A stretch of DNA of 32,000 nucleotides from Candidatus Methanoperedens sp. (lineage in GTDB: Archaea; Halobacteriota; Methanosarcinia; Methanosarcinales; Methanoperedenaceae), in the NCBI GenBank assembly GCA_027460535.1, contig JAPZAR010000020.1, forward strand, positions 41,640 through 73,639, read 5' to 3'. Of this stretch, positions 17,452-32,000 are shown piece after piece. The notes under the pieces were generated by a model. The model was not told where the DNA came from. It saw only the letters and a program-made list of their open reading frames with translations, and made no database searches. Numbering within the stretch: position 1 is the stretch's first letter; every line of letters begins with the position of its first letter. The position numbers and the translations under genes were made by a program.

Positions 17452-17455
17452 CTAC

Positions 17456-17460
17456 TTTTT
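17456..17460 (+). terminator. oligo-T run after the AOR stop codon
   Basis: TAG at 17449-17451, then CTAC, TTTTT and CAATTTATTT. Confidence 0.3.
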
Positions 17461-17470
17461 CAATTTATTT

Positions 17471-17723
17471 AACCGCAGATAAAAGCGCCCAGAGTCACGG
17501 GCCTCCCGAGTTGCGCCTTAGGAGGGCGCGTTCACGTCAACCGTCACGTCAGTTGACGCCGTGCACACGTATGCCAGCGTACTGGCATACGTGGACGCGT
17601 CCTCAAGGGGCGCAACCCTTGACGTATGGCTTCGCCATACGTGGAGTTACGTGTCTTTGCATTGCGGTGGGCATGACGCCGATAAACGCAGATTTGTTGC
17701 TAAGCATCTGCATTTTCTGCGTT
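17471..17723. repeat. about 250-bp intergenic element bounded by AACCGCAGA / TCTGCGTT imperfect inverted ends, carrying a GC-rich hairpin array
   Basis: The left end AACCGCAGATAA (17471-17482) recurs at 26772 and 31868. The right part (17684-17723) is 31/40 identical, as reverse complement, to 26782-26821. The interior (17535-17642) holds four perfect stem-loops and a 10-bp palindrome. The GC content is far above the flanks. Confidence 0.6.
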
Positions 17724-17841
17724 CATTTGCTGGCTATTTTTCAAATAAATCATAATTCTTGAGGCACATCTGTCATTAAGAAATCGATTTAATATGAATG
17801 CATGGTTGCTTGCACATATTCCCAGGCGAACTTCATTAACA

Positions 17842-18675
17842 TCATTCACAAACAGGAAATATTTTATCTTTCAAGTTTGTTTCCAGATCCTGTTTCATTG
17901 TTTCAATAACATTGTTAATAATGCCCTCGACTTCTTTCTTTAATACGTCGTCATTTTTGAAAAAATCATCGTCTGTTTTTGCATTATATTGTGCGCCATG
18001 AGTTCTATATACAAAACCGAACGGAGCAAGAACATACCCCATTTGCTGAAAATAAATAAAAATGTCCAATGCCGTTTTCATTCCTCCATCCTCATGGCCA
18101 TTGACTAAAATCCCAACAACTTTTCCAGTAGTTAAGCCTTCTTTTTTCAGTAAATAAAGATTTTGAAGGCATGTCAGCCTGTCCAGAAAATCCTTTAATC
18201 GCGCAGAAATATTATTCCAATTTATAGGAGAAGCCACGATCACTGCTTTGGAATCAACTATCATCTCATGGAGTGCAGGCGCATCATCCAGCTGGTTCCT
18301 GCATGGGTATGTGCATGCAGAATCCCTCATACTGTAGCAGCACCAGCAGTGTTGAATATCCAATTCGTTCAAATTAAACAGTCTATAACTCACGCCTGTT
18401 CTTTTAAGAGCTTTTTCTGCCAAACTTACTAAAACTCCAGTATTATGACCTCTGTGAGAACTTCCATTAATCAATAAAACATCAAATTTTTCCCCATCGT
18501 ATCTGAGTTTTTGCTTATCATTTAGTTCCGAATATTCTTTAGAAGAACTACTGCATTGGGGACATTCTTCCGGAGGCTCATTTCCCTTATGGATATACCC
18601 GCACACGCTGCATTTCCAGGCTTTACTTTTTTGCAAGCTGATCTTTTTCGTTTCCGCGGATGCAGTAGTAAACAT
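17842..18675 (-). CDS. rubredoxin-like zinc-ribbon domain fused to a flavodoxin-like FMN reductase / iron-sulfur flavoprotein (ISF-like)
   Basis: WKCSVCGYIHKGNEPPEECPQC is followed by FDVLLINGSSHRGHNTG and a compact Cys motif HCWCCYSMRDSACTYPC, as in ISF-type proteins. The start is ambiguous: ATG at 18675, the frame is open to 18756, and a TTG lies nearer 18640. Confidence 0.75.
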   Translation of the reverse strand: MFTTASAETKKISLQKSKAWKCSVCGYIHKGNEPPEECPQCSSSSKEYSELNDKQKLRYDGEKFDVLLINGSSHRGHNTGVLVSLAEKALKRTGVSYRLFNLNELDIQHCWCCYSMRDSACTYPCRNQLDDAPALHEMIVDSKAVIVASPINWNNISARLKDFLDRLTCLQNLYLLKKEGLTTGKVVGILVNGHEDGGMKTALDIFIYFQQMGYVLAPFGFVYRTHGAQYNAKTDDDFFKNDDVLKKEVEGIINNVIETMKQDLETNLKDKIFPVCE

Positions 18676-18850
18676 GTCTAAACCCCATTTTTTCGTGAAC
18701 CGGACAGCCCGGGCACAAACATCCTTTTTCCTCTTTAATGCATTTGCTTTTTCCAATTGTCGAAAGACAAAATGCTATTTCTTCCCTGCATTCGATATAT
18801 GTGGGACAAAGCCCGCATATGCATAACTTAATGGCTTCTTTTTTATCCAT
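18623..18850 (-). CDS. small Cys-rich protein (DUF2769-like)
   Basis: 75 aa. CICGLCPTYIEC...FC...GKSKCI...GCLCPGCPV matches the pattern I associate with DUF2769. Confidence 0.7.
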   Translation of the reverse strand: MDKKEAIKLCICGLCPTYIECREEIAFCLSTIGKSKCIKEEKGCLCPGCPVHEKMGFRHVYYCIRGNEKDQLAKK

Positions 18851-19042
18851 ATTATCTCCTATAACCGCAATATATTGATTTTATTGATTATGTATTTTAG
18901 CTATTCGGATTAATTAGATATACTGATAAAGAAAATCCTCTCTCCAATATAATTACCCTTGCCCTGATCTGCTATAGATGAACTTAATTATATTTACGAT
19001 GCGTGATCAGTAGAAAGTGTAGGTTGCCTGCCATATTTCATT

Positions 19043-20419
19043 TCAGAACACTGATACGGATTTGATGTTCATGAATTCATAGAGCCCGAATTTAGAAAGC
19101 TCCCGTCCAATACCGCTTTTCTTAATCCCTCCAAAAGGCAGGCGTGGATCGGATTTAACAAGGGAATTTATGACTACAACTCCTGATTCAAGTTCCCTTG
19201 ACAAATGAATACCTTTATTAGTGTCCTTTGTCCATAAACTTGCACCAAGACCCAGCTCTGAATCATTAGCAATCCTTATCGCTTCTGCTTCATCTTTAAC
19301 TGGAATTACTGGTGCTACCGGGGCAAATGTTTCCTCATTTATAACTTTCATTTCTTTTGTTACATCAGTAAGGATAACAGGGGAATAAAAATACCCATTT
19401 CCAGGAAGTCTTCCTCCTCCGAGTAACACTTTTGCACCCTTTGATAACGAATCCTTCACCTGATCCTCAATGATCTGGATCTGTTCTTTTCTTACAAGGG
19501 GACCCATGTCAGTATCTGGATTCATTGGATCTCCGACCTTGAGTTTCGAAGCAATTTCCACGAACTTTGAGGTGAACTCTTCAGCAATACTTTGTATAAC
19601 GATGAACCGTTTCGCAGCGATACAGCTCTGACCAGCATCCTGGAACCTGCTCAAAACCGCGATCTTTGCAGCCTGTTCAATATCAGCATCTTCAAGTACG
19701 ATGAAAGGATCACTTCCACCAAGTTCGAGAACGAACTTTTTCATGTTCTGTCCGCAAACTTCTGCCACCTTTTCTCCTGCAGAAACGCTCCCTGTCAATG
19801 ATACTGCATCTATCTCTTTTCTCTCGATAAGCGACGATGCTGTTGGCCCATCAATAAGCAGCGTCTGGAAAACCCCTTCGGGAAATCCAGCATCTGAAAA
19901 TACTTTTTCAATTTCAAGTGCACATAATGGGACGTAGCTTGAATGTTTAAGAAGAACAACATTTCCCCCAGAAAGAGCAGGAGCAGCAAAACGCAGTGCC
20001 TGCCAGAAAGGAAAGTTCCATGGCATGATGCACAGTATTGTCCCCCGCGGTTCAAATGAGACATACGCTTTCTTCGCGTCCGTTTCCACAATCTGGGGTT
20101 CTAAAAATTTCTTTGCATTCTCTGCAAAATACTCAAGAGCCCAGGCACATTTTTCAATCTCTGGTATTGATTCTCTTATGGGTTTACCCATTTCCGTAGT
20201 GATGATTTCGCCAAGTTCCACCTTTCTTCTTCGTAATACTTTTGCGGCGTTAATGAGATGTTTTCCTCTCTCAGATACGTCAAGCCTTTTCCAGTCCGAA
20301 AATGCATCTTTTGATCTCTTAATCGATTCATTTATCCTTTCTTGCGAATAAAACTCAAATTCCCTATTTACATCCCCGGTAGCAGGATTAATAGATACCA
20401 TCTTTTTCATGTATTTCAT
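19043..20419 (-). CDS. NAD(P)-dependent aldehyde dehydrogenase, succinate-semialdehyde-dehydrogenase-like
   Basis: 458 aa with the short-N-terminus SSADH-like form (SINPATGD). Contains ELGGSDPFIV and the catalytic GQSCIAAKRF. Confidence 0.9.
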   Translation of the reverse strand: MKYMKKMVSINPATGDVNREFEFYSQERINESIKRSKDAFSDWKRLDVSERGKHLINAAKVLRRRKVELGEIITTEMGKPIRESIPEIEKCAWALEYFAENAKKFLEPQIVETDAKKAYVSFEPRGTILCIMPWNFPFWQALRFAAPALSGGNVVLLKHSSYVPLCALEIEKVFSDAGFPEGVFQTLLIDGPTASSLIERKEIDAVSLTGSVSAGEKVAEVCGQNMKKFVLELGGSDPFIVLEDADIEQAAKIAVLSRFQDAGQSCIAAKRFIVIQSIAEEFTSKFVEIASKLKVGDPMNPDTDMGPLVRKEQIQIIEDQVKDSLSKGAKVLLGGGRLPGNGYFYSPVILTDVTKEMKVINEETFAPVAPVIPVKDEAEAIRIANDSELGLGASLWTKDTNKGIHLSRELESGVVVINSLVKSDPRLPFGGIKKSGIGRELSKFGLYEFMNIKSVSVF

Positions 20420-20616
20420 CTCCTTTTGTTATCTAACATATTCCTGAGGAACGTATGCAAGATTCCTCCATTTCGATAAAAATCTAGTTCAACAGGTGCG
20501 TCAAGTCTTGCTATAACGTTGAAGATCTTGTCTTTTCCATCAACTTTTGCAACTACCCGCAGTTTTCCTCCCGGCTTTAGACTACCGATGCCAGAAATGT
20601 CAGAGATCTTTTCCAC
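20416..20616 (-). pseudogene. orphan fragment corresponding to the last ~60 aa of aconitate hydratase (swivel-domain C-terminus)
   Basis: LKPGGKLRVVAKVDGKDKIFNVIARLDAPVELDFYRNGGILHTFLRNML matches the conserved AcnA C-terminal tail (..R.DT.VE..Y...GGIL..VLR.L). Only 66 aa are present. It has an ATGA overlap with the downstream ALDH. Confidence 0.6.
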
Positions 20617-20800
20617 CCCATGTGATGGAATACTGATTATAGTCTCCCATTATTGCAGAAGCAGCAGCGCGTTTAATCTCATCAGGGACAGGAAAATCTG
20701 GAAATCCCTGGGCAAGGTTGACGGCATGACGTGTTACGGCAAGCCGTGACATATCACGAATTACCGATTCGGTAATATGTTCTAATCTGTGAGATAACAT
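20600..20800 (-). pseudogene. N-terminal ~65-aa fragment of a class I/II (fold-type I) aminotransferase
   Basis: From the ATG at 20800: MLSHRLEHITESVIRDMSRLAVTRHAVNLAQGFPDFPVPDEIKRAAASAIMGDYNQYSITWG, the typical aminotransferase N-terminus. The frame then terminates at 20600, so there is no PLP-lysine region. Confidence 0.6.
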
Positions 20801-20802
20801 GG

Positions 20803-21501
20803 TCAATACCCTGGAAAATTTTCTTGATGGATCATATCGTCTTGAATTTCCAATGTTTTGAGAATTTCTACAGAACTTGTTACAAGGGACGACGGACCGC
20901 AAACATAAAAAACACATTCTTTATAATCTGGTATCTCTTCTAAGACCATCTGGACGTCTATATGTCCACGCCTTCCTTTCCATTTCTCATCTGGCTGGGA
21001 CAGTGTATGGATTACCCTGAGGTTTTGATTTAGCTTTTCCAGGCGATCCAGTTCTTCCTTGAAAACTATGCTTTCTTGATTCCTGTTTCCATATAAAAAA
21101 GTAATACGGGATTTCATTTCATTATCCGTGCAATATTTAATCATGCTCCTAAGTGGCGTTATCCCGATACCCCCCGTTATCATCCCTACTCTGGGATATT
21201 CACCGTTGAACGCAAAATTCCCGTATGGCCCATCAAGGTATGCCCAATCCCCTATTTTGAGCCTGTCAAGAGCAACTGAGAACTCATGGTCTGTAATCTT
21301 TTTTGTGAATTCAATAAACTCCTTTTCCGTTGGACTGCTTGAGATCGTAAAATGCTTAGTGATTTTATTACCCTCGCTGAGAATTGTTACGAATAAAAAT
21401 TGACCGGGATCGTAATCAAAACCTTGTGGTCTTCTAAACCTGAAGCTCTTTACATCGTGTGTTCGTTTGATTATCTCGGAGACACTGGTTTCTAATTTCA
21501 T
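20803..21501 (-). CDS. FNR-like FAD/NAD(P)-binding oxidoreductase
   Basis: The FAD-binding barrel has the FNR-type FAD-binding motif as KHFTISS (in GNKITKHFTISSSP). The NAD-binding motif is GGIGITPLRSM. Size is 232 aa. Confidence 0.85.
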   Translation of the reverse strand: MKLETSVSEIIKRTHDVKSFRFRRPQGFDYDPGQFLFVTILSEGNKITKHFTISSSPTEKEFIEFTKKITDHEFSVALDRLKIGDWAYLDGPYGNFAFNGEYPRVGMITGGIGITPLRSMIKYCTDNEMKSRITFLYGNRNQESIVFKEELDRLEKLNQNLRVIHTLSQPDEKWKGRRGHIDVQMVLEEIPDYKECVFYVCGPSSLVTSSVEILKTLEIQDDMIHQENFPGY

Positions 21502-21504
21502 AAA

Positions 21505-21837
21505 TCAACAAACCTCTTTTCTACTGCTATCGAACTCGGTCGCCTCCTTCGTTAAAAAGTACCCCATCACCGTTCTGATGCTGACAGTAGCGCCAAGAAA
21601 GATAATCTCTTCCTGGCTGGGAGCAACAATTGTCTTCAAAATATCACTGGCAACGAGAAAGTCCAATCCAAATACGATCTTATGTGTGAAATCTCTGCGA
21701 ATATCATGAAAACTGAGTTCTATTGACCTTTTCAATTCCAATTGCAAAGTTTTGATTATTGTTAAAATCCCTCCGTAAAGTATAATTGCAGCTCCAATAT
21801 ATGCAAAAAGTATTGACGATATATCTATGATTTCCAT
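21505..21837 (-). CDS. small integral membrane protein (DUF1622-like)
   Basis: Two or three TM helices and the conserved-looking LDFLVASDILKTIV...LGATVSIRTVMGYFL. Its stop lies 3 nt before the FNR-like start. Confidence 0.7.
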   Translation of the reverse strand: MEIIDISSILFAYIGAAIILYGGILTIIKTLQLELKRSIELSFHDIRRDFTHKIVFGLDFLVASDILKTIVAPSQEEIIFLGATVSIRTVMGYFLTKEATEFDSSRKEVC

Positions 21838-21882
21838 ATTGTATCACCTCTCACCATTATTCTTTCATAGTTATTACATGTC

Positions 21883-23076
21883 TTAATGTCTTTTTGCACC
21901 AGTGAGACTTCGCATGCTTTCCTGGTTCTCCTGAAATGAAAGATAAATTTCGCGTTTTGCCAACTCCCCAAAAAACAATTCGGGATTTATACACAGTTCA
22001 GGAGGCATGACACCACGCTTTTCAATTTTTTTTTCGGTAATCATTTGTGCGATTATTGACGGCGGCACGCCGGTATCCCAGGTACCTGCTGGTATATTCC
22101 ACCTGGAGTTTGATCTTGATTCACAGTATACTACCACATTCCTTGTCTTTCGGTTGCTCTTTCCCCTCAATTCCACTCTCAGGAACTCTACATCTTTTAT
22201 CCTGTCTTTTTCCGGAATAAACCTGTTCAACAAACTGACGGTAAAGTCAAGGGGAACAACGTCAAAGTTCTTATATTTCACAGGAGTTGTTGACGCAAAA
22301 CCGGTGTCTATGAGGAACTTAATTCTTTCAACAAACTCTTTCGGGAAACCACCTTTAAAGCTGCAATTCTTGATACCTTTATCTTTGAACGATGAAGGGA
22401 AAGTAGCGACTTCTGAATGGAGCGTATAAAAACATGTAGCACTGTTCACAGGTGAAGGAAACTCGATTTCCTCTTCCCCGGTAAGGGGCTTCACGAATCT
22501 TATTTTTCCGCCAGAGAATATCGCCGGTTCCATTGAAAATTCATCAAATATCGTACGCATCGAGTATGGAACCACAAATGGCATACTGTACTTCGTATAA
22601 TCCTTGTCAGCGAAATACACACGTATGGAGTCTATGGCATCAAGGAATCCCGAACCGTAGGCAGCCATTATGTTTGTAATTCCTGGCGTTGCACCACATC
22701 CCACAACAGCAAGAATATTTTTCTTTTTGAAACTTGAATCCAATTTCAATTGCTTTTTGGTCATGTGAAAAAGACCGCCAAGGTCAACATAATTCACTCC
22801 TGCGGAAAGCGCCGCTTCCATTACCTGTAAATTGGTGGTGTATTGGGTTGCATTGATTACAACATCAGAGCCTTTCAGGAGTTCTATCATTTTTTCCACT
22901 TCATCGGCATCTGCTTTTGCATGCATGATATTTTTACTGTTGAAGGATTCTGCAAACATTTTTGCTTTTTCTTCATTCCTGCCTGCAACGACAATCTTTC
23001 CTTTGAATGTTTCCAATAGATCAATTACCGTTATCCTCCCCATTTCCCCGTATCCGCCCAGGACGATAATTTTCAT
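21883..23076 (-). CDS. saccharopine dehydrogenase-family NAD(P)-dependent oxidoreductase
   Basis: Rossmann N-terminus MKIIVLGGYGEMGR, VINATQY...VNYVDLGG and GCGATPGITN, typical of Sacchrp_dh-type enzymes. It has a 4-nt overlap with the upstream aminotransferase. Confidence 0.85.
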   Translation of the reverse strand: MKIIVLGGYGEMGRITVIDLLETFKGKIVVAGRNEEKAKMFAESFNSKNIMHAKADADEVEKMIELLKGSDVVINATQYTTNLQVMEAALSAGVNYVDLGGLFHMTKKQLKLDSSFKKKNILAVVGCGATPGITNIMAAYGSGFLDAIDSIRVYFADKDYTKYSMPFVVPYSMRTIFDEFSMEPAIFSGGKIRFVKPLTGEEEIEFPSPVNSATCFYTLHSEVATFPSSFKDKGIKNCSFKGGFPKEFVERIKFLIDTGFASTTPVKYKNFDVVPLDFTVSLLNRFIPEKDRIKDVEFLRVELRGKSNRKTRNVVVYCESRSNSRWNIPAGTWDTGVPPSIIAQMITEKKIEKRGVMPPELCINPELFFGELAKREIYLSFQENQESMRSLTGAKRH

Positions 23077-24401
23077 TTCATTGCACCAATAGATTCACTC
23101 AATGCCTCCAGTGTTTTGTTTAAATCATCTTTAGAATGGGAATATGAGGTGTATATCGCTTCCTCGCCATCTTCGTCGATCATAATACCTCTCTTTAAGA
23201 GTTCATATTGGACCTTTGTAAACTGTTTCATATCACAATGAGCGAGGTCTCGATAATTTATTATTTTCTCCTTCTCTGTAAAGAGATACTGGAACATTGT
23301 TGGATAACCATGGACAACATGAGGGATTTTATGGTCGTCAAGGATTTCATCGATGCCTTTCATCATGCTTTTCCCATAATTTTCAAGATGAGCCCATACG
23401 CTATCCTTTTCAAGTTCTTCTAAAGTAGCCTTGCTGGCAGTAAGCGAAACTGGATTTGCAGAATATGTACCGCCATGCATGACTTTCCCGGGTCCTATCA
23501 GCTCCATAATATCTTTTCTTCCCCCAAAAGCTGCTATTGGATATCCATTTCCCAGTGATTTTGCAAACGTCGAAAGATCTGGATATACCCCAAAGAGCTC
23601 TTGAGCTCCACCTTTCCCAAGCCTGAATCCGGTCTTTACTTCATCGAAAATTAGGATAATATCATATTCTTCGCACAGTTCTTTTAGATATTTCAGGTAG
23701 CCGTTTGCCGGAGGGATGGCAGAGCAATTTCCCATAACTGGTTCTGTAATTATTGCTGCAACATCCTTGTAATTCTCTTTCACAATATATTCAATTTCTT
23801 CTGGTTTATTCCACTCGCAAACCAGCGTATATTGAGACATACCCTTTGAAATACCCCATGAAGCAGGAATTGCTTCTCTTGGGGATTGATATCCGGGTTT
23901 CGTGGAAAACGCAACAGCATCATGCCATCCGTGATAATGCCCCTCGAACTTTATTATCTTGTCCTTTTTTGTGAATGCCTTGGCGACCCGTATTGCTCCC
24001 ATCGTTGCCTCTGTTCCAGAGCCCGCAAACCTGAGCATATCAATTGATGGCACAAAATCTATTACTGTTTTTGCCACGTCGATCATAAGCTCATTATCAG
24101 AAGCATATACCAGACCCTTCTCATCTGCTTTATGCACAGCTGTATGTATTTTTCTATAACTGTGACCAAGTATGACCGGGCCATAACCCAACCGGTAATC
24201 TACATATTCATTTCCATCTACATCCCAGATATGAGACCCGAAAGCTTTTTCAATGAAAATGCTGCAGGGTCCGAACTCATGACAGACACTTTTCATGAGC
24301 CTTGCGTTTGATCCCACTCCTCCTGGGATGATTTTCGAGGCTTCCGTATACATCGCCATTGATTTATCCAACTTAAATTGTTTTGTCATATTATTCTTCA
24401 T
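23073..24401 (-). CDS. class-III (HemL/GSA-aminomutase-like) PLP aminotransferase
   Basis: Contains IIPGGVGSNARL, GSGTEATMGAIRVARAF-like (AGSGTEATMGAIRVAKAF), DEVKTGFRLG and the PLP-Lys region FAKSLGNGYPI. The track start at 24455 would overlap the upstream ALDH, whereas the ATG at 24401 lies 8 nt after its stop. Confidence 0.9.
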   Translation of the reverse strand: MKNNMTKQFKLDKSMAMYTEASKIIPGGVGSNARLMKSVCHEFGPCSIFIEKAFGSHIWDVDGNEYVDYRLGYGPVILGHSYRKIHTAVHKADEKGLVYASDNELMIDVAKTVIDFVPSIDMLRFAGSGTEATMGAIRVAKAFTKKDKIIKFEGHYHGWHDAVAFSTKPGYQSPREAIPASWGISKGMSQYTLVCEWNKPEEIEYIVKENYKDVAAIITEPVMGNCSAIPPANGYLKYLKELCEEYDIILIFDEVKTGFRLGKGGAQELFGVYPDLSTFAKSLGNGYPIAAFGGRKDIMELIGPGKVMHGGTYSANPVSLTASKATLEELEKDSVWAHLENYGKSMMKGIDEILDDHKIPHVVHGYPTMFQYLFTEKEKIINYRDLAHCDMKQFTKVQYELLKRGIMIDEDGEEAIYTSYSHSKDDLNKTLEALSESIGAMK

Positions 24402-24411
24402 ACGAATTCCT

Positions 24412-25905
24412 TTATTTTTCTCCAAAAACGGTATAATACCATGGCTTTCTGACAAGACCGGTCTGGTCGATATAAACGTGCTTAATTATTGTGTATTCCT
24501 CAAGTGAAAATATTGACAGGTCTTTCCCCGTTCCGCTCTGTTTAAAGCCACCATGCGGCATTTCAGAAGTAAGCAACCCGTGCTCGTTTATCCAGACAGT
24601 TCCAAATTTCAGTTTGCTGGCAATCCTGATAAGGTTTGTAATATCTTTTCCCCAGACTGAAGATGCCAATCCATAGACAACATCATTCGCTTTGCTAATT
24701 ACCTCATCAATGCTTGAAAACCTGGAAACAGATAATACAGGGCCGAAAATTTCTTCCTGGCAGATTTTCATTTTCTGTTCTACATTTGTAAAAATGGTAG
24801 GTTCAAAGAAATAGCCTTTCTTCAGGTTCTCAGGTCTTTTACCCCCATAAACAAGATTGGCTCCGCCTTCTATTCCGGATTTCACATACGATTCAATCCT
24901 TTCCCTCTGTCGTCCTGATATCAAAGGACCCATGTCGATTTTTTCCCCAAATGGATCCCCTATCCTTATTTTACTCGTTTTCTTTACCAATAGATCGATA
25001 AATGCATCATGAATACTTTCATGAACGTAAATTCTTGTTGCAGCCGTACAATCCTGTCCGCTGTTCAGGAAAGCTCCAGCCACTGCTCCTTCTGTTGCTG
25101 CATCGATGTCTGCATCACCCATAACGATAAACGGTGCTTTGCCCCCGAGTTCCAGATGTACTTTTTTCAGGTTACCAGATGCCATTTGCATGATCTTCTT
25201 CCCTGTAGAAGTATCACCGGTCAAAGAGATCATATCCACCCCGGGACTCGTTGCAAGTTCTTCTCCGATCTTATCTCCCGGACCTGTTATAACATTGAGA
25301 ACGCCTTTTGGTAGTCCTACCTTATCCGCCAATTTAGCAAACTCAAGAAGTGTCAGCGGAGTATAGGTCGCAGGTTTGAGTATTATCGTATTCCCGGCTG
25401 CCAGCGCAGGCGCAAGTTTCCAGATTGCTATGTATAAGGGATAATTCCAGGGAACCACTCCTACAACGACTCCAATGGGCTCTCTTCTGATTATGCTCAT
25501 GCCCAATCCAGTATACTCTGAAGCAGCACTGCCCTCCAGCATCCGGGCAGCGCCGGCGAAAAACCTGAGATTATCGATTATAAAAGGAAAATCAGAATCT
25601 TTGCTGTATTTTATTGTCTTGCCTGTATTCATTGATTCCAACCTGGCAAGGTTTTCAACATTCGCCTCAACAATATCTGCCAGCTTCCAGAGAATCTGGG
25701 AACGCTCCGCTGGAGTTTTATTAGACCAGATACCAGAGTCAAAAGCATCTCTTGCTGCATCTATTGCAGTTTTTGCATCTTCTTTTGTGCCAAGCGGGAC
25801 CCGGGCGATTTTTTCCTCGGTTGCAGGATTTATAACATCAAAAAATTCTCCGGATATTGAATCAACCCACTTCCCACCTATAAACATTTTGTATTTTTCT
25901 ATCAT
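24412..25905 (-). CDS. NAD-dependent aldehyde dehydrogenase, aminobutyraldehyde/betaine-aldehyde (PatD-like) type
   Basis: Contains KMFIGGKWVDS, ELGGKAPFIV and the catalytic GQDCTAATRIYV, a motif I associate with gamma-aminobutyraldehyde dehydrogenases. Confidence 0.88.
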   Translation of the reverse strand: MIEKYKMFIGGKWVDSISGEFFDVINPATEEKIARVPLGTKEDAKTAIDAARDAFDSGIWSNKTPAERSQILWKLADIVEANVENLARLESMNTGKTIKYSKDSDFPFIIDNLRFFAGAARMLEGSAASEYTGLGMSIIRREPIGVVVGVVPWNYPLYIAIWKLAPALAAGNTIILKPATYTPLTLLEFAKLADKVGLPKGVLNVITGPGDKIGEELATSPGVDMISLTGDTSTGKKIMQMASGNLKKVHLELGGKAPFIVMGDADIDAATEGAVAGAFLNSGQDCTAATRIYVHESIHDAFIDLLVKKTSKIRIGDPFGEKIDMGPLISGRQRERIESYVKSGIEGGANLVYGGKRPENLKKGYFFEPTIFTNVEQKMKICQEEIFGPVLSVSRFSSIDEVISKANDVVYGLASSVWGKDITNLIRIASKLKFGTVWINEHGLLTSEMPHGGFKQSGTGKDLSIFSLEEYTIIKHVYIDQTGLVRKPWYYTVFGEK

Positions 25906-26256
25906 AGATTCACCTCAAATCCAAATGGCAGCTCCATGATATTCAGAATAATTCTCACAAGTTTATCTAAATGATACTATCTTTAGAGGAACTTTTATAA
26001 GTCCAAGAGAACATTCCAACCCTAATCTTGCTGCCGCAAACAGCACATTGATCTAATGAAAAGATTGTGGTTTATTTGATAAATAGTTTCCTGATTATCA
26101 CAGTTTTTCGAGAAAGTATTAATATACAACCTGTACCAAGCTGAAGCCGATATTTTTATGACAGTCATTTATATCTCCAGAAGTGGTTCAGCTTCGGCAT
26201 CCAGCAAATCATTTACCTGAATAATCTCATCACTGAAATAGCCTCAGGGTTGAGGT

Positions 26257-26738
26257 TCAGGCGATCCTTCGGCGTGCAAACCTTGGCGCTCTGGTCATCA
26301 CGTTCTGGTTATAGCCTGCCTCAATGTAGTCCTGCAAGAATGCATAGGGTAAAAGTGCATACGACAGGGCTGCGTACCCATGTGCAGAAGTGATTGAGAA
26401 CCTCCGCTGCTTGCCCGCAGAGGTCGAGACCTCCTCAGCCTCGGCCTGCCTCAAATATGAAAAATGTCCGTTCTGGCGGCCTGCTCCGGGAAATAATATA
26501 TTCCCAGACTCCACCCGTTTATGATGGATTCCGTATTCTCACACATCGCTGTATGATTGATGCTAACATGATACTGCCAGTCATCCTCTGGTAGTGGAAG
26601 ACCATTTATCTCTTTGATCGTATTCCAGATGGGATATTTGAACCCGAATTTAGTAAATGCGCTCCATACCTGCCGGGATAGTACCTCATCAATATCTGGT
26701 TCTTGGTCTTGCCGTATCCGGCATGGTAAAGCACCCAT
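26257..26738 (-). pseudogene. two overlapping minus-strand ORFs (95 aa + 85 aa) that look like one frameshifted gene of unknown family
   Basis: ORFs 26451..26738 and 26257..26514 overlap by 64 nt in different frames. The 3' half is unusually GC-rich, and no family is recognised. Confidence 0.3.
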
Positions 26739-26770
26739 TTCGCCGATTCATATGAAAAAATAAGATTTGT

Positions 26771-26832
26771 AAACCGCAGATGAATCAGAAAATGCAGATA
26801 CGCAGCAACAAATCAGCATTCATCTGCGGTTT
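26771..26832. repeat. 62-bp palindromic element: perfect 15-bp inverted repeat AAACCGCAGATGAAT / ATTCATCTGCGGTTT around a 32-nt core
   Basis: Arms are at 26771-26785 and 26818-26832. The core shares exact blocks of 14 nt and 11 nt with the reverse complement of 17684-17723. It lies 40 nt downstream of the pheS stop. Confidence 0.85.
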
Positions 26833-26871
26833 CCTTACTTATAAATTTTCAAAACCGGACCAAAATTTCCA

Positions 26872-31866: not shown

Positions 31867-32000
31867 AAACCGCAGATAAGCGTACTATTAACACTTTCGG
31901 TCAGCATTATCTTAACGGCGCTGGGGTTACGACCCCAGACCCCAACGGATGCGCCGCCGCTGGCGGGGTTTAACACGAAATCACCGGTTGCATATTTTCA
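31867..32000. repeat. third copy of the AAACCGCAGATAA repeat end, followed by GC-rich hairpins and running off the window
   Basis: AAACCGCAGATAAG at 31867-31880. Hairpins are CTGGGGT(TAC)G-ACCCCAG at 31921-31938 and CCGCC-GCT-GGCGG at 31954-31966. The GC content is far above the surrounding AT-rich spacer. Confidence 0.45.

Follow-up and report, generated by a model that had tools for sequence, protein, structure and literature searches.

We analyzed a 32,000-nt stretch of a Candidatus Methanoperedens sp. genome (contig JAPZAR010000020.1 of assembly GCA_027460535.1; hereafter, the window) around a GC-rich island of hairpins at 17535–17642 between two convergent genes. With moderate confidence, we read this island as one copy of a lineage-specific, non-autonomous modular repeat, confined to the methane-oxidizing Methanoperedenaceae, that resembles the REP/BIME or BOX mosaics of bacteria. 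The island is probably mobile, "junk-like" DNA rather than a gene dedicated to an RNA.

The island lies between the stop codon of an aldehyde:ferredoxin oxidoreductase (AOR) gene (17451) and that of a convergent gene for a rubredoxin-like/FMN-reductase flavoprotein (17842), as the initial annotation of this sequence had it, and is richer in GC than its surroundings (0.59–0.64 over 17500–17649 vs. 0.31–0.47 on both sides). All five palindromes listed in that annotation are present where it had placed them. The 9-mer ACGTATGSC, also noted there, occurs four times in the window, always within the island and in alternating orientation, compared with 0.17 occurrences expected from shuffled sequences (0/100 shuffles attained four). 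A 108-nt stretch with four distinct perfect hairpins (stem ≥7 bp, loop ≤10 nt) is the densest in the window. The full hairpin list has nine entries in the island and 19 in the remaining 31.9 kb, a density far beyond chance. Compared with dinucleotide shuffles, the region 17487–17676 folds with a z-score of about −7 on both strands; a DNA fold of 281 nt for the complete element (17471–17735, delimited below) gave z = −6.4.

A dispersed family of hairpin modules

We scanned one genome per species (185,579 species) for the pattern ACGTATGSCN{3,8}GSCATACGTGGA and obtained at least 120 matching stretches, of which about six would be chance matches by our own estimate. Among the matches listed, 118 fell in about 37 assemblies assigned to Methanoperedens, to Methanoperedenaceae, or to unclassified archaea, and two were strays (one from a "bacterium" and one from Ornithinicoccus). 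The ACGTATGSC hairpin motif was absent from the IMG/VR viral contigs, and the element had no match in plasmid and phage collections. Related loci around the copies were retrieved for comparison (denoted by L-numbers; 813 kb in total). The initial annotation had proposed a search for further copies and for compensatory changes in related genomes; both are present, with at least 118 related loci and clear covariation of the stems.

A set of 21 "filled" copies (104–264 nt), drawn from many genomes, have two ends in common. At the 5′ end, AACCGCAGAT-RAAnGC is followed by an A-type module (see below), and the core enters at the identical point in all 21 copies. At the 3′ end, either of two boxes precedes (C)GATGAACGCAGAT, and between these shared ends lie one to five hairpin modules. 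The 108-nt cassette of the window copy (17538–17646), to which the originally annotated segment essentially corresponds, is 93.5%–96.4% identical over 108–110 nt to cassettes in L011, L082, L127, L088, and L050. These relatives sit in three frameworks: a frame of decamer T-sites, a related CACGGAT/ATCCGCG decamer array, and an intercistronic frame denoted "G...H." Within the metagenome-assembled genome (MAG) CAYXIP01, four 150-nt composites on different contigs are 92%–99% identical, whereas their flanks are about 55% identical. These units have thus been copied to unrelated places.

The modules covary in a way that points to conserved structure. They are strung together in either orientation, with ACGT as the stem foot of the B- and C-type hairpins. 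Across 149 family instances of the C hairpin, stem pair 8 is C-G in 83, G-C in 65, and mismatched in one (complementary in 148/149), and the tip varies in length and sequence with its pairing kept. The A-type module is 25 nt long and comprises a variable 6-bp stem, an almost invariant loop (TYRCGCC), and a 3′ tail that pairs with the loop; pairs of inverted A-type modules make a long outer helix. At least eight complementary variants of the A-type stem were found (e.g., CCAGAG/CTCTGG, CCCGAG/CTCGGG, TCCGAG/CTCGGA, and CAAGGG/CCCTTG). In 60 distinct instances, the stem (S1) shows changes on both sides in 5/6 of its pairs; the instances were pre-selected for at least 5/6 stem pairs, which makes the diversity of the stem informative and the percentage paired not. 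The loop–tail helix was not pre-selected, and its pair 10–26 is GC in 41 instances, AU in 10, GU in four, and other in five. The predicted geometry of the A-type module fits an H-type pseudoknot or else a pair of alternative hairpins. When six copies from as many genomes are aligned, four structures prove to be kept: the outer helix, the 12-bp hairpin, the second C hairpin, and the B′ hairpin, the last of these with two compensatory changes. Since the stems covary, we infer that the structure of the modules is under selection.

The copies differ by class in how they are placed relative to genes. Between co-directional genes, T-class (window-type) copies lie four times in gene sense and six times against it, and others are found between convergent or divergent genes. 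All 22 scorable copies of the G...H class are in gene sense.

Members of the G...H subclass (a G module, a C hairpin, and an H module; 100–180 nt) sit exactly between the stop codon of an upstream long open reading frame (ORF) and the ATG of a downstream long ORF, often with ATGA at both junctions and with a Shine-Dalgarno-like GAGGTG inside the last hairpin. They look as if inserted into a stop/start overlap with both genes preserved. Long ORFs also run through elements in L124 (2850–5366), L056, and L096; the 839-amino-acid ORF of L124 has its copy about 1.7 kb in. Such cases may reflect genuine insertions within genes that keep the frame, or frames that stay open by chance in GC-rich repeat sequence. 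At two loci of the Methanoperedenaceae MAG Kmv03 (L018 and L087), we noted head-to-tail arrays of a 75- to 82-nt unit that combines an A module with a C hairpin and one further hairpin, suggesting that modules can amplify in tandem too.

Anatomy of the composite element

The limits first given to the feature (17535–17642) proved too narrow, and the unit extends over 17471–17735 (Table 1). Similarity to other copies begins at 17471 and fades past about 17694. The element is built on a frame, a palindrome of 10-nt units (AACCGCAGAT / RAACGCAGAT), whose left arm is split by the 190-nt GC-rich core and whose right arm matches positions 26786–26828 of the window in inverted orientation (84%). The hairpins of the core had been described as lying back-to-back; they are real, but the first two are enclosed by a long-range helix, which arises because module D is an inverted copy of module A. 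The A module of the window has a degenerate local stem, with CTTAGG in place of CTCGGG, and ahead of it stands a 17-nt partial duplicate, CCCAGAGTCACGGGCCT; an equivalent partial duplication is found in L029, L072, and L076. The CAAGGG/CCCTTG stem variant of module D occurs with the same loop as in other A-type modules. The second C hairpin of the window, ACGTATGGCTTCGCCATACGTGGA, is the most frequent variant (14 copies). The right end of the core is of the RE1 type, whereas some other copies end differently, in RE2.

The element contains ACGT seven times versus 0.98 expected, and these occurrences are located at the module junctions. An explanation by restriction sites was rejected, as ACGT is not avoided elsewhere in the window (48 observed vs. 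51 expected). We also considered the 13-nt direct repeat that brackets the core (CGCAGATAAAAGC / CGCCGATAAACGC) as a target-site duplication. Its two copies do not covary between elements and both lie in the decamer frame, and we therefore regard them as part of the frame. A coding role, with small proteins encoded by the G–C–H composite and by the ORFs at 17511–17762 and 17561–17755, was rejected as well, as inner hairpin segments of 6–12 nt shift the frame between copies.

Table 1. Features of the composite element in the window, of the two other decamer elements of the window, and of related loci (positions refer to the window unless a locus is given)
Feature	Coordinates	Strand	Details
Whole composite element	17471–17735	.	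Decamer-repeat palindrome (frame) with hairpin-rich core in left arm
Left arm of frame	17471–17486	+	Unit 1 and first part of unit 2 (AACCGCAGAT AAAAGC); interrupted here
GC-rich hairpin core	17487–17676	.	Mosaic of modules
A-type module region	17488–17529	+	Module itself 17505–17529: CCCGAG-TTGCGCC-TTAGG-AGGGCGC
Long-range helix, 5′ arm	17510–17532	.	Pairs with 17594–17616; minimum-free-energy folds
B′ hairpin	17535–17558	.	CGTCAAC-10-GTTGACG; homologs with compensatory changes GC to AU, UA to CG
Conserved 108-nt cassette	17538–17646	+	B′ hairpin, 12-bp C hairpin, inverted A-type module D, second C hairpin
C hairpin 1	17566–17593 (stem); to 17596 with GGA tail	+	12-bp stem CACGTATGCCAG-CGTA-CTGGCATACGTG
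Palindrome	17593–17602		GGACGCGTCC; part of D module
Long-range helix, 3′ arm	17594–17616	.	
D module	17597–17622	−	Inverted A-type; minus strand TCAAGGG-TTGCGCC-CCTTGA-GGACGC
Hairpin	17603–17622		TCAAGGG-6-CCCTTGA; part of D module
C hairpin 2	17622–17642; to 17645 with GGA tail	+	9-bp stem ACGTATGGC-TTC-GCCATACGT
3′ box of core	17649–17680	+	ACGTGTCTTTGCATTGCGGTGGGCATGACGCC; conserved right end of RE1-type copies, GTGTCTATGCAnnGCGGCGGGCATGACGCC
Resumed left arm	17681–17693		GATAAACGCAGAT
Frame loop	17694–17705		TTGTTGCTAAGC
Degenerate right arm	17706–17735		ATCTGCATTTTCTGCGTTCATTTGCTGGCT
"Empty" frame palindrome	26772–26831	.	Uninterrupted, 60 nt; AACCGCAGATGAAT...ATTCATCTGCGGTT; perfect 15-bp closing stem (AAACCGCAGATGAAT...)
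Third element	31868–32000	+	Begins AACCGCAGAT, then different GC-rich hairpins (e.g., GGGGTTACGACCCC); runs past window end
G...H loci	L033:1960–2062; L045:1018–1117; L050:4946–5126; L051:2584–2686; L019; L088; L116		
GxxExxY / PD-(D/E)XK_3 genes	L051:1162–1939; L253:3728–4185; L158:2066–2735; L182:5394–5950; L076:3436–3774		About 115–150 amino acids; between inverted decamer arrays

The decamer frame and GxxExxY genes

The frame has a distribution of its own. The decamer AACCGCAGAT occurs 63 times exactly in the 813 kb of related loci, where we estimate about 1.6 occurrences by chance. An uninterrupted arm reads AACCGCAGAT-RAACGCRGAT-RAACGCAGAT, with two or three phased decamers, and in a subset of copies a short loop and inverted decamers follow. 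The window has an "empty" copy of this palindrome 41 nt downstream of the stop codon of the PheRS-alpha gene (26872), with a fold z-score of −4.4, and a third element at its right end. The source contig continues for about 81 nt beyond the window, and the assembly probably broke in this last repeat.

Outside of the archaeal genomes, the decamer site was found in 21 IMG/VR contigs (49%–65% GC), none of which has hairpin modules in its viral copies, and in at least 120 metagenome contigs (mostly 55%–70% GC), where the arms stand between a dozen and several hundred nucleotides apart. For most inverted T-site pairs, the distance is <300 nt. Two of the IMG/VR contigs encode Mu-like portal, capsid, and tail genes and have three to four perfect palindromes with 30-bp arms between the structural genes. 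The frame is pan-environmental, occurring in phages, high-GC metagenome contigs, and archaea, and is not specific to Methanoperedens. Among the viral loci (IMG/VR, about 60% GC), we noted perfect decamer palindromes with 30-bp arms (AACCGCAGATGAACGCAGATGGACGCAGAT ... inverted) between the structural genes of tailed phages, with Mu-like portal, capsid, and tail-tube genes, at L143 (824–915, 5530–5625, and 7140–7235), L144, and L147.

At several decamer copies, the center is a GxxExxY gene (TIGR04256, E = 1e-35 to 7e-43; PF13366, PDDEXK_3). Such genes with flanking decamer arms were found in L051, L253, L158, L182, and L165, of which L051 is from Methanoperedens and L158, L182, and L253 are high-GC metagenome contigs; the GxxExxY gene of L076 is flanked by the other decamer family, CACGGAT. 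The start codon of the gene lies within a decamer (AACCGCAG ATG AAC GCA GAT GAA CGC AGA, encoding MNADERR). Seven out of eight GxxExxY genes or fragments in all retrieved DNA had flanking decamer arrays, a fraction with an ascertainment bias, as most non-archaeal loci were selected by the decamer itself. No gene was generally associated with positions downstream of T-sites, and the GxxExxY cases alone stand out. In L082, a 264-nt composite of the window type is situated in the arm directly ahead of a GxxExxY ORF fragment.

The PDDEXK_3 family has been described as "Unknown, Prokaryota & Viruses, multiple transfers" (PMC3424549). The GxxExxY-type decamer-repeat mini-element is not a published family and is defined in this analysis. 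In the window, its inverted arms, each with two or three decamers in phase (AACCGCAGAT / RRACGCRGAT), are present on either side of a variable center. The elements of the window resemble the GxxExxY loci in that the same decamer flanks these genes, in Methanoperedens, in high-GC contigs, and near phage genes, and supplies their start codon. They differ in that both window palindromes are without an ORF (no GxxExxY ORF was detected in the window by tblastn with four GxxExxY proteins), and the hairpin modules are missing from all non-Methanoperedenaceae copies. On sequence grounds, the two palindromes are best read as ORF-less derivatives of the mini-element, in one of which the hairpin core would have been inserted just past ATGAACGC. 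The same arrangement suggests that the high-copy GxxExxY genes may be cargo of small palindrome-ended mobile elements.

Competing explanations and known systems

Out of the explanations offered by the initial annotation, the one that came nearest to our findings is that the hairpins are cargo of a flanking repeat element: the island lies inside the left arm of the decamer palindrome, and the window has an empty copy of that palindrome at 26772–26831. A second candidate, a protein-binding array of recombinase or transposase sites, is conceivable; no cognate enzyme was detected in the 813 kb around the copies. By analogy with REP/RAYT or with the ends of IS200/IS605 elements, the hairpins might be recognized in single-stranded DNA or as cruciforms by a trans-acting enzyme, which would copy modules into preferred landing pads, namely, decamer arrays, other modules, and stop/start junctions. 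Locally, the effect would be passive; very stable hairpins would form in any transcript that reads through from one or the other convergent gene.

Several observations weigh against a mobile mosaic repeat. A long "autonomous" version was not found; in the sampled 813 kb, where spacings of 0.3–4 kb were sought, left and right ends were never >230 nt apart. Neither an HUH/Y1-like ORF nor an enriched transposase family was found in the 813 kb around the copies. Copy number is probably in the tens per genome and not in the hundreds; only five further module clusters were found away from the anchor matches in 765 kb. An insertion polymorphism (filled vs. empty at one orthologous site) was not observed, and mobility is therefore deduced from dispersal. 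The single junction common to all filled T-site copies could reflect one ancestral insertion rather than site-specific targeting. Finally, the loop–tail covariation, with its possible pseudoknot, and the strict gene-sense orientation of the G...H subclass (22 to 0) are more typical of functional RNA. The largest "protein family" near the copies was dismissed as an artifact of ORFs reading through repeated DNA.

The loop–tail covariation and the gene-sense orientation favor the strongest rival, which we regard as possible though not likely: The modules could act at the RNA level, as cis-elements or as multi-copy small RNAs (sRNAs) with roles in stability or processing or as protein-binding hairpins or pseudoknots, in 3′ untranslated regions or between cistrons, with the window copy serving both convergent genes. 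Consistent with this are the covarying stems, the conserved A-type loop TYRCGCC, the GC/AU covariation between loop and 3′ tail, and the H-type pseudoknot geometry. C hairpins between co-directional genes are co-oriented in 40 cases to nine overall, the G...H cassettes lie exactly between an upstream stop and a downstream ATG with GAGGTG in a hairpin, and both strands of the window island fold very stably. Yet the window-type copies show no such preference (four to six) and occur in convergent, divergent, and tandem contexts, and A-type modules are found in both orientations within one element. A discrete structured sRNA, another candidate of the initial annotation, is not supported. The number of modules varies from one to five between copies, the same cassette occurs in three unrelated frameworks, T-class copies have no orientation bias, the element ends have no conserved promoter or oligo-T, and the AOR gene has its own T5 run right after its stop codon, ahead of the element; together, these findings argue against a discrete RNA gene, and the varying module number, the lack of conserved promoter or oligo-T, and the T5 run of AOR count against the RNA-level rival too. 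The Rfam 15 covariance models, which include CRISPR repeats, ribozymes, and omega-RNA-type families, had no match at gathering score in the 32-kb window, and at E-values up to 10 the island surroundings and one phage palindrome gave sub-threshold microRNA- or small nucleolar RNA-like chance hits alone. Given the gene-sense placement of the G...H class and the loop–tail covariation, some members of the family at least may still act at the RNA level.

An unlikely alternative on present evidence is that the element is a protein-binding or recombination site marking the edge of a mobile or rearranging block, with the palindromes at 17471–17735 and 26772–26831 bracketing a cassette of roughly 9 kb. 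In another Methanoperedens species (L132; GCA_027460525.1), the Dus–AOR and PheRS-alpha genes are syntenic but 1.7 kb apart with unrelated DNA between, and no hairpin element was found downstream of AOR in this locus, whereas in the window AOR and PheRS-alpha are 9.4 kb apart and the block is bounded on both edges by the two decamer palindromes. The decamer units are phased at 10 bp, three per arm, like arrays of protein-binding sites, and complete elements carry the PD-(D/E)XK nuclease-like gene. However, this is a single comparison, and hence a lead, with a species that shares only about 76% identity in AOR; the closest AOR orthologs (about 79% identical) are mostly non-syntenic, which leaves L132 alone informative on the empty site. 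Moreover, such repeats build up in any long intergenic region, no recombinase or transposase was found in or adjoining the block, and the short distance between most inverted T-site pairs suggests small elements and not gene-block brackets.

We consider it very unlikely that the hairpins owe their presence to local selection for a barrier to transcription, or a terminator, working in both directions. Their position between convergent genes, their stability on either strand, and the T5 run that follows the element (17738–17742) would fit such a role. On the other hand, the sequence is a copy of a dispersed family and not a local invention, and only about a third of the classifiable T-class copies lie between convergent genes. 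Archaeal termination depends on oligo-T and not on hairpins, and the remark in the initial annotation that the island has more structure than an archaeal terminator needs was a fair one.

A mobile mosaic repeat remains our preferred reading; the lack of such an element downstream of AOR in L132 and the Logan assembly breaks described below are in line with it. A more far-reaching proposal, which we hold to be rather unlikely, is that ACGT-footed hairpins and the pseudoknot-like A modules constitute a previously unrecognized archaeal system of structure-specific mobile cassettes. These would home to two kinds of target, the start-codon region of the GxxExxY mini-element (a "parasite of a parasite") and the ATGA stop/start junctions of operons, to which they would add a ribosome-binding site of their own. 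An enzyme that recognizes single-stranded DNA or RNA structure would move them, and/or the host would employ them as modular parts in RNA regulation.

Further features of the locus were noted. Contig JAPZAT010000056.1 (Candidatus Methanoperedens MAG GCA_027460495.1) and several metagenome contigs encode an identical AOR protein. The contigs of three independent Logan assemblies break off at window position 17500, within the element, as a repeat does in a k-mer graph. The block between AOR and PheRS-alpha (17452–26862) encodes an FMN-reductase/rubredoxin, a DUF2769 protein, two aldehyde dehydrogenases, an FAD-binding protein, a DUF1622 protein, a saccharopine dehydrogenase, and an aminotransferase; its counterpart in L132 (4711–6415) is the 1.7 kb of unrelated DNA. 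The start of the convergent flavoprotein gene (17842–18756) differs between assemblies of identical DNA (254 vs. 162 amino acids), and the 254-amino-acid form adds a rubredoxin-like zinc-ribbon domain ahead of the FMN-reductase domain. Over the whole window, CTAG is strongly depleted (five observed vs. 26 expected under a second-order model), with a mild depletion of GGCC (0.72) and GATC (0.76) and none of ACGT.

Bacteria are the classic hosts of palindromic repeat mosaics such as REP/BIME. Our literature search found no description of an archaeal equivalent nor of such repeats or sequences in Methanoperedens. The repeats break assemblies of an environmentally important methane oxidizer, as seen in the three Logan contigs and at the end of the source contig. 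The window palindromes sit at the edge of a variable gene block, and the G...H subclass splits operons precisely at stop/start overlaps. The link between the decamer palindrome and GxxExxY yields the testable idea that the uncharacterized high-copy GxxExxY / PD-(D/E)XK genes are the cargo or the engine of a small mobile element. For annotation, the family carries a warning that GC-rich hairpin islands in Methanoperedens genomes should not be called sRNA genes.

The family was also compared with other known mobile and repeated elements. For integron attC sites, no GTTRRRY/RYYYAAC pair was seen by eye at the element ends, and no integrase was found among the window genes scanned. The signature of DDE-type miniature inverted-repeat transposable elements, terminal inverted repeats with a target-site duplication, was not seen; the decamer frame has inverted arms of 15–30 bp and flanks without visible direct duplication. 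The family also resembles the IS200/IS605-derived PATEs of archaea, which likewise have hairpin-rich ends that lack terminal inverted repeats. Insertion is always at the same point, directly 3′ of ...AACGC|, the right end finishes on a similar ...GACGC|, and the pairing beyond the hairpin recalls the guide/cleavage-site pairing of IS608. Unlike PATEs, our copies had no cognate insertion sequence with TnpA/TnpB and the same ends in the sampled 813 kb, nor a match to omega-RNA-type families of Rfam, and the resemblance is mechanistic speculation. The pneumococcal BOX element (boxA-boxB(n)-boxC) and the Correia, ERIC, and RUP repeats are similar in having conserved terminal boxes, a variable number of internal modules, strong predicted structure, and intergenic, non-coding positions. 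They have no sequence similarity to the element, and the modules described here are common to three unrelated frameworks.

Of the known kinds, the bacterial REP/BIME (REPIN) mosaic comes closest. The window element does not belong to it: The GTAG tag is absent, and no RAYT was found in the 813 kb around the copies. In the REP surveys consulted, tagged REPs come from bacterial phyla only, whereas the host here is archaeal. Where REPs have an unpaired GTAG (or CGTC) tag, the repeats here have a recurrent ACGT at the foot of the stem, with CGTC only inside the B hairpin, and the conserved part of the A-type module is its loop, which pairs with the 3′ tail. Copies probably number tens per genome, and no RAYT-like (Y1 HUH) gene was found in those 813 kb. 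The similarities are nonetheless extensive. Both families consist of short GC-rich imperfect palindromes outside genes (here, C hairpins of 21–29 nt and A-type modules of 25 nt). Both form clusters of alternating orientation, with inverted dimers that make a larger hairpin (here, modules A and D), and both have covarying stems and lineage-specific variants. REP dimers, moreover, are regularly inserted inside longer "target" palindromes (Di Nocera et al. 2013, PMC3733652), which is the arrangement of the hairpin core in its decamer frame.

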